NCBI GenBank assembly: GCA_965216315.1
Contig: CBDCFN010000015.1
Span: 192,001-256,000, forward strand
DNA from: a bacterium
Lineage (GTDB): Bacteria; UBA10199; 2-02-FULL-50-16; JAJFLM01
Length of the DNA: 64,000 nucleotides
Direction of reading: 5' to 3'
The notes below the pieces were generated by a model. It made no database searches, was not told the DNA's origin, and saw only the letters and a program-made list of their open reading frames with translations. Positions 28,457 through 63,206 of the stretch are shown here, piece after piece; position 1 is the stretch's first letter; the number at the start of each line of letters is the position of its first letter. The position numbers were made by a program, and so were the translations under genes.

Positions 28457-28495
28457 TTATACCTTTACGGACGCGTCAAAGAGCCGGGCATGCTC
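28457..28495 (-). pseudogene. Orphan duplicate of the dgt 3' end (EHARLFDASVKV*)
   Basis: 39-nt copy of 28585-28623 with 7 synonymous third-position differences. Confidence 0.9.
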
Positions 28496-28499
28496 GTCG

Positions 28500-28579
28500 A
28501 TTCGCAAAGCGAAAGCGCAGCTTCCGCTTTGCTTGAGTCATGGGGAAGAAAACTCTCTCCCCCCTGACAACCCCCCATC
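28500..28579 (-). repeat. Repeat family R2 (two-hairpin element), copy C
   Basis: Minus strand GATGGGGGGTTGTCAGGGG..CCCCATGACTCAAGCAAAGCGGAAGCTGCGCTTTCGCTTTGCGAAT. Confidence 0.85.
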
Positions 28580-28584
28580 GCGAG

Positions 28585-29730
28585 CTACACCTTAACAGAC
28601 GCATCGAAAAGCCGGGCATGCTCTTCCAAAGCAAAGCGGTCAGTCATGCCCGCGATATAATCGCAGACAACGCGCTCGACACGGATATCATCGACTTTGT
28701 GACTGACATCGGCGGGTAGGATGTTGGGGTTTTTGCAATAGGCGCGAAAGAGATCTTCTAGGATGAGCTTCGCCTTCTCAGCCATACGTTCCACGCGAAA
28801 ATGTTTATAGAGTTTGCTATATAGAAACGCCTTGAGCTCTTTATTGGCGTGTTTCATTGTCGCCGAAAAGCCAACGCATTTGGCAGCGGCCTGCCGAACA
28901 TCCTCTAAACTACTAATGTCATGCGTCTCAATCGTTGCTTCCGTCGTTTGAACGAGGTCGGTTACCAGGGCATTGAGAATCGCCTTGACTGTTTGTCGTT
29001 GATGAACGAGTTCATGCTCGGAACAAGTCGCGCGCGTTTGTTCATAATGCTCCTTCCACAGGCTCACCTCTTGTAATTGCTCAACTGTAATCAGGCCCGA
29101 ACGCAACCCGTCATCTAAGTCATGGCTATTGTAAGCAATCTCATCGGCGATATCGACGAGTTGGGCTTCCAGTGTCGGTTGACCAATTTTTTGAAAGGCC
29201 GCTTGGGATTCATCATAAGACGTCGCGTGTTTGGCAATACCTTCGCGAACCTCATAACTGAGATTCAGCCCCGGAAAATCGGGATACCGTTTTTCAAGCA
29301 AGGTAACAATTCGTAGTGACTGCTTGTTATGCTCAAAACCCCCGAACTCTTTCATCAAATGATTCATGACATCCTGACCGGAGTGCCCAAAGGGAGTATG
29401 CCCTAAATCATGTGCCAGAATAATCGCTTCAGCGAGTTCTTCGTTGAGACGCAGCGCTCGCGCGATCGTCCGCGCAATCTGTGAACCTTCTAAGGTATGC
29501 GTCAGGCGCGTCCGGTAGTGATCACCTTCATGGAAGACAAAGACCTGCGTCTTATATTCAAGCCTTCTGAAGGCATTGGAATGGATAATACGATCACGAT
29601 CGCGTTGAAAAGCCGTTCGATAAGTGTGCTCTGGTTCTTCATATTCACGACCCTGCGAGGCCTTGCTCTGACAGGCATAAGGAGCCAGCATCTTGGTCTC
29701 TAAATTTTCATATTCCTGGCGGGTTAACAC
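28585..29730 (-). CDS. dgt: Deoxyguanosinetriphosphate triphosphohydrolase
   Basis: RTAFQRDRDRIIHS.AFRRLEYKTQVF, RTRLTHTLE, HDLGHTPFGHSG, DYIAGMTDRFA. Confidence 0.95.
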   Translation of the reverse strand: MLTRQEYENLETKMLAPYACQSKASQGREYEEPEHTYRTAFQRDRDRIIHSNAFRRLEYKTQVFVFHEGDHYRTRLTHTLEGSQIARTIARALRLNEELAEAIILAHDLGHTPFGHSGQDVMNHLMKEFGGFEHNKQSLRIVTLLEKRYPDFPGLNLSYEVREGIAKHATSYDESQAAFQKIGQPTLEAQLVDIADEIAYNSHDLDDGLRSGLITVEQLQEVSLWKEHYEQTRATCSEHELVHQRQTVKAILNALVTDLVQTTEATIETHDISSLEDVRQAAAKCVGFSATMKHANKELKAFLYSKLYKHFRVERMAEKAKLILEDLFRAYCKNPNILPADVSHKVDDIRVERVVCDYIAGMTDRFALEEHARLFDASVKV

Positions 29731-37883: not shown

Positions 37884-37887
37884 CCAA

Positions 37888-37981
37888 TTAAATCCCTCCT
37901 AGCCTCCCTTTACAAAAGGGAGGGACCTCAAGTGGAAACCGATATCTCCCCCTTTGTAAAGGGGGATCGAGGGGGATTTAA
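37888..37981. repeat. Repeat family R1, full TTAA-bounded MITE-like copy
   Basis: TTAAATCCCTCCTAGCCTCCCTTTACAAAAGGGAG...CTCCCCCTTTGTAAAGGGGGATCGAGGGGGATTTAA. Confidence 0.85.
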
Positions 37982-40092: not shown

Positions 40093-40171
40093 GATGAGGG
40101 ATTGTTAAGGGAGAGCGCGGTATCTCTCCCTTAACTAAAGCCTCCTGGAAGCTGTGCTTTCAGGAGGCGAA
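40093..40171 (+). repeat. Repeat family R2, copy B
   Basis: GATGAGGGATTGTTAAGGGAGAGCGCGGTATCTCTCCCTTAACTAAAGCCTCCTGGAAGCTGTGCTTTCAGGAGGCGAA. Confidence 0.85.
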
Positions 40172-54095: not shown

Positions 54096-54172
54096 GATGG
54101 GGGTTGTCAGGGGGAGCGCGGTATCACCCCCTGACTAGAGCACAATGGAAGCTCAGCTTTCATTGTGCGAAT
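54096..54172 (+). repeat. Repeat family R2, copy A
   Basis: GATGGGGGTTGTCAGGGGGAGCGCGGTATCACCCCCTGACTAGAGCACAATGGAAGCTCAGCTTTCATTGTGCGAAT. Confidence 0.85.
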
Positions 54173-54233: not shown

Positions 54234-55505
54234 ATGAGCTTAAAACACATTCCGATCGGCCCCAAACTCTCTTTGCTGGTCATCTTATTCGTCAGCGGCC
54301 TGACCGCCGGGATCCAGGGACTGATTTATCTCTACCAGCCGGAAATCTTTCAGCTCGTTTCGGCTCCCGTCGCCGTGACCCTATCGGCGGCCCTCTCCGC
54401 GGTCCTCACCGGCATCACCCTTCTCCTCCTGACCCGGCGTCTGGTCGATAAGCCGTTAGAGCGGCAAAATCGCCATCTGATCCTCCTCTATGATATCGCG
54501 CGGCTGTTGAGCGAATCCGTCGCCTCCGAAGATGCCTATCAGGAAATACTCGATATTGTCGGCTGCATGCTGGATTACGACGAACTCGTCCTGTTGCTGC
54601 ACCAACCCCAATCCGATACATTGAAAGTCGCCGCTACTTACGGACTCAAGCATCCCAATGATATCGTCGGTATGGAATTTGCCGCCGGCGAAGGGGTCAC
54701 GGGTGCGGCCATTGCGCAGCGGGCCCCTATCAGTATTCCCAATACCCGCAATGATGAACGCTACCTCTATTACAAGGGCTTGAAGCCGGAAGACGTTTCA
54801 TTCTTAACGGTCCCGTTACTCGACCCAGCGGGCGATAAGGCCATCGGCACGCTTAACGTAAGCCGCCCTGCGGATAAACCTTTTGGACAACATGAACGCG
54901 AAACAGTTCAAGCGGTTTCCAACCTCGTGTCGCTCGCGCTCCGTAATGGAAACCTGTACGGCCGTCTCAAAGAACTGTCCGTGCGTGATGAACTCACAGG
55001 TCTCTACAATAGACGCGATTGCGACAAAACGATTCAACGCGAACTGATTCGCGCCACTCGCTTCAAGCGTCAGTTGTCCGTGTTAATGATCGATATCGAC
55101 CACTTCAAGAAATTCAATGACCGCTATGGCCATCAAGAGGGCGATAAGATGCTCCAAGAATTCGCCGCGCTCTTAAAGGCATCGCTGCGTGACGTCGATT
55201 ATATTTCGCGCTGGGGGGGTGAAGAGTTTTTAGTTATTCTACCAAGTACGGAACCTGAAGGCGCATTAAACGCCGCTGAAAAAATCCGTCGCCGCGTCAG
55301 CCAACATAGCTTTGATAATCTCAAAATCACTTCTGATTTTCAATTTACGGTCTCCATCGGCGTCGCTACCTTTCCCGATGACGGAAAAACTGCCGAAGAG
55401 CTGGTCAGCCGTGCCGATCAAGCCCTATATACGGCCAAGGGCGGTGGTCGTAATCGTGTAATCGTCGCAGGCGCTCACGAGAAAGCCAAACAAAAGGTTG
55501 TATAA
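54234..55505 (+). CDS. Membrane GAF-GGDEF diguanylate cyclase
   Basis: Two TMs, GAF, DELTGLYNRR, DIDHFKKFNDRYGH, RxxD I-site (RDVD), RWGGEEF. Confidence 0.95.
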   Translation: MSLKHIPIGPKLSLLVILFVSGLTAGIQGLIYLYQPEIFQLVSAPVAVTLSAALSAVLTGITLLLLTRRLVDKPLERQNRHLILLYDIARLLSESVASEDAYQEILDIVGCMLDYDELVLLLHQPQSDTLKVAATYGLKHPNDIVGMEFAAGEGVTGAAIAQRAPISIPNTRNDERYLYYKGLKPEDVSFLTVPLLDPAGDKAIGTLNVSRPADKPFGQHERETVQAVSNLVSLALRNGNLYGRLKELSVRDELTGLYNRRDCDKTIQRELIRATRFKRQLSVLMIDIDHFKKFNDRYGHQEGDKMLQEFAALLKASLRDVDYISRWGGEEFLVILPSTEPEGALNAAEKIRRRVSQHSFDNLKITSDFQFTVSIGVATFPDDGKTAEELVSRADQALYTAKGGGRNRVIVAGAHEKAKQKVV

Positions 55506-55508
55506 GAA

Positions 55509-55572
55509 TTATTTCTTTGCGGGAATAGGCATTCCCAATTTCTTCATTACCTGCTGCAGATCCTCCCACACA
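55509..55572 (-). pseudogene. Orphan duplicate of the udg 3' end ([20 protein letters not shown])
   Basis: Copy of 55665-55725; near-identical on the gene-proximal side, diverging towards the stop. Confidence 0.88.
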
Positions 55573-55664
55573 CTATTCATAGGGGCTTGCGTCGCCCCCT
55601 CCGGTCGGCAAAGCCGCCGGAACCTCCCCCTCTCGGACGCTTTGCGTCCTAGGTCGGATCTGCT
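55573..55664 (-). repeat. Three-hairpin element (R3) between the duplicated udg ends
   Basis: Minus strand GGACGC-AAA-GCGTCC; TCCGG-CGGC-TTT-GCCG-A-CCGGA; GGGGC-GACGCAA-GCCCC. Single copy in this window. Confidence 0.6.
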
Positions 55665-56357
55665 TTATTTTTTAGGTATTGGTAAATTCAATTTCTTCAT
55701 GACCTGCTGCAGATCCTCCCACACATCCTTCTTCTTGTATTCGTTACGGAGGAGATAGGCGGGGTGATAGGTGGGCATCATATCAATACCGGCCACCTGG
55801 TGAAACTGGCCCCGCAAACGCGTGATTCCCATTTCGGTTCCAAGTAAAGCCTTCACCGCAACATTCCCAAGGCCAATCAACATCTTCGGGCTAACCGTTG
55901 CAATTTGGCGCAACAAGAAGGGGTAGCACGTCTCTATCTCGGAAGGTTCCGGATTGCGATTATTGGGTGGGCGGCATTTGACGATATTGGCAATGTAGAC
56001 ATCGTCCCGTTTCAGGCCCATCGCCTCAATCATCCGCGTCAACAACTGTCCGGCACGTCCGACAAAAGGTTCGCCCTTTACGTCCTCATCTTGCCCCGGT
56101 CCTTCACCGATAAACATAATATCCGCGTTAGGGCTACCGACTCCAAAAACAATGTTGGTTCGACCACTGCAAAGCTTGCAGCGCTCACAGTCACCTATAT
56201 CTGCTCTAATGTCTTCGAGACTCTCCTTTTTCAACTCATCGCTACTTGATTTTGCGAGCTGATTCGACTGCGGTAAATCGGGAATCCCCAGTTCCGCTTG
56301 ATACTCAAGTTCCGCTTTGAGCTGATTGGCAATTTGCTCTCGCTCACCCATCGCCAA
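55665..56357 (-). CDS. udg: Family-4 uracil-DNA glycosylase
   Basis: [43 protein letters not shown]. Confidence 0.95.
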
Positions 56358-62399: not shown

Positions 62400-63064
62400 C
62401 GACGACGTTTCTTGATAAAATCCCAGATCTTATGAGACAGCCGCTCCTTTGTCATCCGAGGGAGCGGCTGCTTTTTGCCTGCGGCATCGATGACAACGAC
62501 TTCATTTTTTGAGTCACCGAAGGCATTCCCCTGCCGAACTCGATTGGCCACAATCATATCAAGATTCTTGCGTCGCAATTTATCCGTTGCATTCTTGATA
62601 AGGGCATTCGTCTCCGCAGCAAAGCCCACGAGAAACTGCTGGGACTTTTTACGTTGGCCCAGCGTGGCCAGAATATCTTGCGTCGCTTCGAGCCGCAGCG
62701 TCATCCCACGTGACTGGGTCGAAACAGACTTTTTTAACTTTTGTTTCGCCGGTTGAACCGGACGGTAATCGGCTACCGCCGCGGTCATGATAATGACATC
62801 CGCTGACTTCGCCTTTTTTAGAGTCGCGCGCGCCATCTCGGCAGCGCTAACGACTTCAATCACCTCGACACGCTTTGGCTTGGCAAGCGCAACCGGGCCA
62901 CTTACGAGCGTCACCTTAGCACCGCGTTCCTGGGCAGCGCTCGCCAAGGCATAACCCATGCGCCCTGTAGAAGGATTGGAAAGGAAGCGAACGGGGTCGA
63001 GGTACTCGCGCGTGGGGCCGGCGGTTATAAGGACATTGAGGTTTTTGAGATCTCGTTTGGGCAC
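62396..63064 (-). CDS. coaB: Phosphopantothenate-cysteine ligase (stand-alone CoaB domain)
   Basis: LITAGPTREYLDPVRFLSNPSTGRMG, AAVADY, VGFAAET, MIVAN. Confidence 0.92.
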   Translation of the reverse strand: MPKRDLKNLNVLITAGPTREYLDPVRFLSNPSTGRMGYALASAAQERGAKVTLVSGPVALAKPKRVEVIEVVSAAEMARATLKKAKSADVIIMTAAVADYRPVQPAKQKLKKSVSTQSRGMTLRLEATQDILATLGQRKKSQQFLVGFAAETNALIKNATDKLRRKNLDMIVANRVRQGNAFGDSKNEVVVIDAAGKKQPLPRMTKERLSHKIWDFIKKRRR

Positions 63065-63189
63065 TTAAATCCCCCTTAGCCAGCCTTGCCGGCAGGCTGG
63101 TCCCCCTTTACAAAGGGGGAGATCACGGTTTCAATTTATGTCCCCATTCTTGTCCCTCCCTTTGTAAAGGGAGGTTAGGAGGGATTTAA
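63065..63189. repeat. Repeat family R1, full TTAA-bounded copy with nested palindrome
   Basis: TTAAATCCCCCTTAG[CCAGCCTTGCCGGCAGGCTGG]TCCCCCTTTACAAAGGGGGAG...CTCCCTTTGTAAAGGGAGGTTAGGAGGGATTTAA. Confidence 0.85.
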
Positions 63190-63206
63190 TCTACCTCAAA
63201 CTCCAT

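Follow-up and report, generated by a model that had tools for sequence, protein, structure and literature searches.

The gene for a family 4 uracil-DNA glycosylase (udg) in this bacterium raises the question of why its 3′ end is present twice, on either side of a small hairpin element, and of how such an arrangement could have come about. The window, which is the whole stretch of 64,000 nucleotides that was analysed, contains the following features at this locus.

54234..55505, + strand: GAF-GGDEF diguanylate cyclase gene, the convergent neighbour (open reading frame; PF01590 and PF00990)
55509..55535, − strand: orphan udg tail, diverged distal part and stop (GMPIPAKK-stop), likely the resident end (translation; stop at 55509-55511, 3 nt to the GGDEF stop)
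55536..55572, − strand: orphan copy of the 37-nt core, abutting the fixed ("L") end of the element R3 (repeat comparison)
55573..55652, no strand assigned: R3 element, whole (folding and copy alignment), made up of a T-rich L end (55573-55581), hairpin 1 (55582-55598), hairpin 2 (55599-55622), a C-rich spacer and hairpin 3 (55635-55649)
55653..55664, no strand assigned: 12-nt linker from R3 to the functional udg stop (sequence), which probably entered with the element
55665..55688, − strand: functional udg tail, distal part and stop (NLPIPKK-stop), likely imported (translation; stop at 55665-55667)
55689..55725, − strand: functional copy of the 37-nt core, past which the gene reads T-C-C on the + strand, that is, with C at +3 (repeat comparison)
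55665..56357, − strand: udg, family 4 uracil-DNA glycosylase, 230 aa (open reading frame; PF03167; TIGR00758 above its cut-off)

In the window sequence, the two cores (55536-55572 and 55689-55725) form a direct repeat of 37 nt with 36/37 identity, and their sole mismatch, GTA against GTC, specifies valine either way. Past the core, the orphan and functional tails share five conserved codons, four of which carry a silent change, and differ by two residue changes and one additional codon. Changed codons are far more frequent there (4/5) than within the core (1/10; p = 0.017), and the orphan retains its frame and stop, the indel being a whole codon. The orphan stop lies 3 nt from the convergent GGDEF stop, which ends at 55505. 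The spacer from the functional udg stop to the orphan core measures 92 nt (55573-55664), and the core-to-core spacer of 116 nt holds no gene. The flanking-repeat score of the site is 69, a value to be read against the 2 of 400 random sites that score 40 or more. The original prediction described a udg 3′ end duplicated around a three-hairpin element, with about 37 proximal nucleotides differing by one synonymous base and divergence that climbs towards the stop with an in-frame codon indel, and every detail that was checked holds (the repeat, the two stops and the three hairpins). The orphan is also in frame with udg behind an ATG at 55580, which was put down to chance, since other loci have spacings not divisible by three.

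Assembly duplication is very unlikely as the source of the repeat, since the two udg copies differ in sequence. Contigs from three of four public runs (two samples of one study, which may be the source samples) join each udg copy to its own side of R3 with zero differences; these contigs stop inside R3, and none spans the whole element. An excised form, which had been proposed as something that reads might reveal, was looked for in the contigs: none of the joints listed skips the element, and as contigs drop rare variants this is not evidence of absence.

R3 is a non-coding three-hairpin repeat of about 80 bases with 39 copies in this genome, situated mostly at junctions of housekeeping genes. 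The 92-nt region at udg folds into three hairpins on both strands (z = −2.9 on the + strand and −3.1 on the − strand, relative to 200 shuffles). Among 35 sequences, hairpin 1 is invariant and hairpins 2 and 3 covary, with 92% of cells paired and 73 cells showing two-sided change, a count that relatedness can inflate and that 0/500 shuffles equalled. The two ends of the element are dissimilar, so that R3 has three local hairpins instead of terminal inverted repeats, and the hairpin foot preceding the G run is variable (ATA, ACA, TTA, GGA and others). The strict R3 pattern occurs in 13/93 genomes of the phylum and the loose pattern in 41/93, with no matches for the reversed control; the matches listed also include records titled Nitrospirae, Syntrophus, Syntrophorhabdus and Patescibacteria, one carrier being the cultured Syntrophorhabdus aromaticivorans. 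The copy at udg falls in an eight-copy subfamily that is absent from the loci of other genomes that were compared. R3 gave no match in viral contigs, plasmids or phages, and no RNA holder was among the matches listed. In a search of Rfam no known structured RNA exceeded its gathering score; the only hit, c-di-GMP-I, reached 16.7 bits against 35 (E = 0.73) and was taken as chance. Relative to the replichore, 27/39 copies share the orientation of the lagging-strand template (p = 0.024), a weak bias that is uncorrected for gene orientation; the corresponding counts for two other hairpin families, R4 and R5, are 15/30 and 6/12. In one genome, R3 forms head-to-tail arrays at loci L165 (seven hits) and L176 and is nested in composites with other hairpins at L029, L058, L059 and L061.

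The layout at udg is not confined to this gene. In this genome, 9/39 R3 copies are flanked by a repeat of 34-68 nt, duplicating the 5′ ends of hisF, smpB, an M16 peptidase gene and tmRNA and the 3′ ends of udg, sufD, nuoC and two tRNA-Ala genes (hisF, smpB, the M16 peptidase, sufD and nuoC are what we take these genes to be from their translations, which does not apply to udg, the tRNAs and tmRNA). Two additional scoring cases at an rRNA spacer were set aside as tRNA and R4 paralogy. Across many genomes, one uniform rule was applied to 265 R3 loci (89 for discovery, 96 held out mostly from other phyla and 80 held out from the same class), after removal of one identical locus, a run of N, two tandem arrays and two cases that involved another repeat; 35/265 carry a duplicated gene or RNA end, with repeats of 17-125 nt. 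The expectation that other R3 copies would also sit between duplicated gene ends was borne out for a minority, the nine copies here including the one at udg. As most copies lack a duplication (30/39 here and 230/265, or about 87%, overall), duplication is one outcome of R3 insertion and not the rule. In other genomes, non-duplicated R3 adjoins some of the same genes (M16 and nuoC). About 10 pairs of distant genomes have R3 next to the same gene, a number no higher than chance might yield.

The duplications have an invariant polarity. In 35/35 cases the orphan ends at the same end of R3, 4-12 nt before hairpin 1, and the mirror layout alone was seen at 0/270. Because 5′ and 3′ gene ends are duplicated with the same R3 polarity, the orientation follows R3 and not transcription. 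The hairpin families R4, R5 and R6 of this genome show the same gene-end layout, which together with the R3 cases substantiates the earlier suggestion that the architecture is general and extends to other element families. R4 has 30 genome copies, of which three lie in the window (28458-28626, 54098-54171 and 40093-40171); the copy at 28458-28626 brackets a duplicated gene end, and another immediately precedes the GGDEF gene. At two tRNA-Ala genes and tmRNA (C16:784882-785180, 1900267-1900573 and 1980661-1981020), R3 and R4 are found back to back within one duplication. A separate region (C16:137447-140600) contains several diverged copies of one gene tail with cargo between them, an orphan-tail array without R3. 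The window also harbours a palindromic family of a different kind, in which runs of C and G surround an A/T core (6822, 11928, 37886-37981, 45814 and 63062-63194).

The differences between duplicated copies are mostly silent. In 14 coding cases there are 59 silent changes and 6 replacements (59/65); this count leaves out the ortholog L031, two short or non-coding cases and nine cases found later, and as the repeat ends were set by score drop, diverged tails are trimmed from it. The silent-site fraction is 0.20, and 59/65 gives p = 2e-21 even against the 0.34 expected for a decaying orphan; with the distal udg tail included the count is 63/74 (p about 1e-19 against the same expectation). Since the differences are so largely silent, both gene ends evolved as coding sequence, and not as decayed target-site duplications. 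At distances above 27 nt from the junction the density of silent changes is higher (35/97 codons, against 17/94 nearer to it; p = 0.006), and the sufD and tRNA duplications are perfect.

A case in two species suggests that the cores evolve in concert. The argG gene is duplicated in genomes G008 and G081, whose argG gene bodies are 83% identical, and R3 and both distal tails are common to the two species. Within the 42-nt argG core there are four silent differences between the species, each present in both copies of each species. From this one species pair, the cores would seem either to convert each other or to be renewed by repeated insertion, because the species-specific differences sit in both of them. 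It had been predicted that recombination between the udg cores would swap the C-termini of the protein. Sequence does appear to pass between cores, judging by argG, but recombination between direct repeats would remove the insert with R3 and restore the orphan tail, and would not toggle between two ends. A repeat of 37 nt is near the lower limit for RecA.

Which of the two udg tails is resident can be approached through the convergent neighbour. The GGDEF stop could be placed beside udg in 8/19 relatives, where it lies −29 to +22 nt from the udg stop (one further relative has 703 nt). Here the gap is 3 nt for the orphan and 159 nt for the functional end. Since the spacing in relatives matches the former and not the latter, the orphan is most likely the resident udg end and the functional tail imported, which backs the earlier proposal that the orphan stop is the original one. 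Neither the 93 genomes of the phylum nor the 80 best metagenome loci yielded a relative with an empty site (the best udg match has 68-69% amino acid identity), so it is the stop spacing that points to the direction of transfer. The residues that differ between the tails are 224-230 of 230, beyond the UDG domain match (Pfam 71-217; TIGR00758 57-222), and an alignment of udg C-termini from relatives, as had been proposed, shows these residues to vary freely. For these two reasons a functional C-terminal switch of UDG is unlikely, and the exchange of tails probably has no effect on the enzyme. In two other genomes (G007:C93 and G013:C45), udg matches fall into two parts inside open frames of about 600 aa, which may contain inteins.

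The junctions carry a base preference of their own. The third base past the repeat in the working gene (+3) is C in 20/20 discovery cases against a background of 0.255, although tRNA ends and one orthologous pair mean that these cases are not all independent. As a prediction fixed before the held-out data, C at +3 recurred in 7/9 cases of the same class (p = 0.0015) and failed in the set mostly from other phyla (2/6; p = 0.48). Over all duplicated R3 cases it is found in 29/35 and is the only strongly conserved base. The bases that follow the orphan are borne by the element, with G first in 21/35 and usually C or T third. Plain R3 copies mostly start N-T-C-T-A-T-T, and C-T is frequent at both ends of non-duplicated R3; duplicated cases exchange about 2 nt before the C. 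Element end and target therefore share a C, with exchange about 2 nt ahead of it. At udg the target C is present, but its counterpart in the element is displaced by 2 nt and adjoins a CA run that may allow slippage. A proposal that the third hairpin of the same element is copied into the left-junction bases failed when the cases were compared.

What the data establish is thus a repeat family with a conserved structure and an invariant polarity, biases at silent sites and at the junction, and a single case of cores evolving in concert. To explain these observations we favour, with modest confidence, a non-autonomous R3 element that is joined to the chromosome through a sequence-directed cut at its fixed end and through homology on the far side. 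A strand-specific cut at one end combined with homology at the other fits because the joining end is fixed, the target bias concerns one base, the length captured is variable and transcription direction is irrelevant. R3 would first lie beside a gene end without duplication, the common state. A trans-acting enzyme, most plausibly a single-strand nuclease of the HUH/Y1 type, would then cut at the L end and at a loosely specified site lying 17-125 nt into the adjacent gene (3′ of A-G-N-N as read on the bottom strand), and so capture the gene end. The resulting unit, as a small circle or as incoming linear DNA, would use homology to enter the corresponding gene in a related strain or species, and later exchange between cores would keep these alike and the distal tails distinct. 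Individual steps have parallels in the available text on other systems: TnpA-REP cleaves between C and T at sites close to its hairpin or distant from it (PMC8266576), IS608 enters single-stranded targets 3′ of a tetranucleotide (PMC5027513), and IS91 carries adjacent DNA along by one-ended transposition (PMC13181058). R3 elements likely arrive together with a replacement gene end from a relative; at udg, R3 likely came as a unit with the short linker and the udg tail of a relative, leaving the likely resident tail as the orphan. A broader version, which we put forward only tentatively, is that R3 and the related repeats are mini-elements that need no integrase and create attachment sites for themselves: a one-ended single-strand cut would capture the end of an adjoining conserved gene, and the unit of 100-250 nt would home into that gene in other strains and species, enter and leave it repeatedly, and exchange the termini of essential genes and RNAs while leaving these intact.

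A search for the mobilising enzyme covered several families. A Pfam scan of 233/233 open-frame segments flanking 120 R3 loci in other genomes (cut-offs 1e-5 and 1e-8; the flanks of this genome and loci L162-L283 lay outside the scan) gave no transposase, integrase or small nuclease. The Y1 transposase family is present in 78/93 genomes of the phylum, including most of those without R3, and was not found in 3/13 genomes with the strict R3 pattern. R3-like hits lie near 2/12 Y1 loci, both in one genome with 54 copies. The sole Y1 gene of this genome scores below the cut-off of the REP-associated family, has no R3 within 1.5 kb and has a different repeat of its own. This RAYT-like gene (L021, C16:1205400-1214100) is accompanied by a 14-nt repeat that is fused to a 421-nt orphan argG tail (87% identical) and also to an orphan of the Y1 3′ end, with C at +3; cargo open reading frames lie between, and the junctions are on opposite sides of the motif. 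These fusions could bear on R3 by analogy only. This genome has two GIY-YIG genes and one DUF559 gene; IS110 transposase was not found in it, and Y2 transposase gave no match here, but its control was likewise silent.

The best surviving alternative, which we nevertheless regard as unlikely, dispenses with a dedicated enzyme: transforming DNA bearing R3 would recombine by homology on one side and join illegitimately on the other, with the hairpins marking donor breaks made by host nucleases or stalled strand exchange. It accords with the presence of comEC in this genome, with the layout shared by several unrelated hairpin families, with the search having linked no enzyme to R3 and with the observation that, in the available text of Furuta et al. 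(PMC2853133), most insertions with long target duplications fall in naturally competent species. Against it, a one-end junction in 35/35 cases with a shared C and recurrent G-G/T bases is too specific for random illegitimate joints.

Less probable again is that each case is the remnant of an island or prophage, mobilised by an integrase, that inserted in a gene end, brought in a substitute for it and was later reduced by deletion to a terminal hairpin. The outcome resembles that of e14 and phage 21 in icd of Escherichia coli and of tRNA and tmRNA islands, in which incoming DNA likewise brings a new end and leaves the old one orphaned; R3 targets include tRNA and tmRNA ends, and displaced tails with cargo exist in this genome (argG). 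Those elements, however, encode an integrase, use one site and restore the gene end, whereas R3 encodes nothing and sits at dozens of unrelated 5′ and 3′ ends. The 116-nt spacer at udg is free of genes, and a single family at nine or more unrelated targets in one genome, with a fixed end and a near-constant insert of 60-190 nt, is not what such remnants would leave. No left flank of R3 recurs further off around cargo, and no R3 lies near the five tyrosine recombinase loci.

It is more doubtful still that R3 is an ordinary MITE- or REP-like repeat that makes long target-site duplications, with the orphan decaying neutrally and conversion keeping the core alike. Some duplications are perfect (sufD and the tRNAs), the argG pair has species-specific cores in both copies, and insertion with target duplications of 44-400 nt is described in the available text of PMC2853133. 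The silent bias nevertheless far exceeds what decay would give, and the udg orphan keeps its frame and stop with a whole-codon indel, so that this explanation is largely refuted for the coding cases. R3 has neither the terminal inverted repeats nor the short fixed target duplication of a MITE. A gene-end repeat beside a hairpin recalls the anatomy of diversity-generating retroelements, but that the copies are the template and variable repeat of such a diversifying system is hardly credible, as the differences are silent and not limited to adenines and 5′ ends and RNA genes are hit equally, and the same verdict applies to an assembly artefact, given that the copies differ and that each is joined to its own R3 side in contigs of two samples.

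Among known systems, the insertions with long target duplications come close. The available text of Furuta, Abe and Kobayashi (2010; PMC2853133, which also cites work by Nobusato et al.) describes kilobase restriction-modification clusters between near-identical repeats. Inserts without mobility genes and unique direct repeats of about 45 nt or more, variable in length and able to overlap a gene end, are common to both, and R3 at udg likewise has unique direct repeats of more than 30 nt around an insert without mobility genes. R3 differs in being an 80-nt multicopy hairpin element with a fixed joining end, silently diverged repeats and no restriction-modification cargo. With REP/REPIN sequences and their TnpA-REP (RAYT) proteins, and with IS200/IS605 ends, R3 shares non-autonomous hairpin repeats, tandem arrays, a possible short cut-site signature near a hairpin foot and frequent C-T at the ends of plain copies, but it lacks the invariant GTAG tag and a linked Y1 gene; gene-end duplications are not described for these systems in the available text of PMC8266576 and PMC5027513. 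One-ended transposition of IS91/IS1294 also features one fixed end, variable capture and a short target with T at position 2, but IS91 has its own transposase, makes no target duplication and uses unrelated sites (available text of PMC13181058). A derivative of IS200/IS605 or IS91 would have a fixed tetranucleotide target and no duplication, whereas R3 has the single C in most cases and long repeats at a minority of loci.

R3 also resembles MIRU and RPE, as these are described, in being a repeat of 40-150 nt at operon junctions, with some small open reading frames that may be coupled to their neighbours and one in-frame insertion (nadC); MIRU, in the available text of PMC3184786 and PMC12548453, has direct repeats of 4 nt, and a crude rule finds coupling in only 11/70 co-oriented R3 cases. 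The available text of PMC2996986 lists multicopy palindromes of Geobacter without the R3 layout, and its supplements could hold R3-like families. A search of full-text literature, whose coverage leaves out most subscription papers, turned up no account of small hairpin repeats whose gene-end duplications are polar and have diverged silently. The junction rule (C at +3) and the two-species case of cores evolving in concert are new.

R3 insertions bear on the spread of short palindromic repeats among prokaryotic genomes, of which they leave an unusually readable record: one end that is fixed, a preferred base at the junction, and the donor allele next to the resident one. The layout thereby provides defined substrates for finding the enzyme. 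It also suggests a route by which tiny non-coding elements may settle in compact operons and essential genes without harm and carry gene termini from one lineage to another.

Within operons, the orphans may have a role in translation. The orphan starts of hisF, smpB and the M16 peptidase gene (C15:135437-135647, C15:400225-400406 and C16:391403-391631) read through R3 as mini-ORFs of 45-54 aa that stop −1 to +4 nt from the working start. By a crude rule, coupled mini-ORFs occur at 5/8 duplicated loci, against 6/61 other rows. Operon orphans may thus persist through keeping translation coupled, an explanation that is not applicable to the convergent udg site. A further R3 copy in this genome lies in frame inside nadC (C15:441370-441450), where it adds about 27 residues in a manner akin to a Rickettsia palindromic element.
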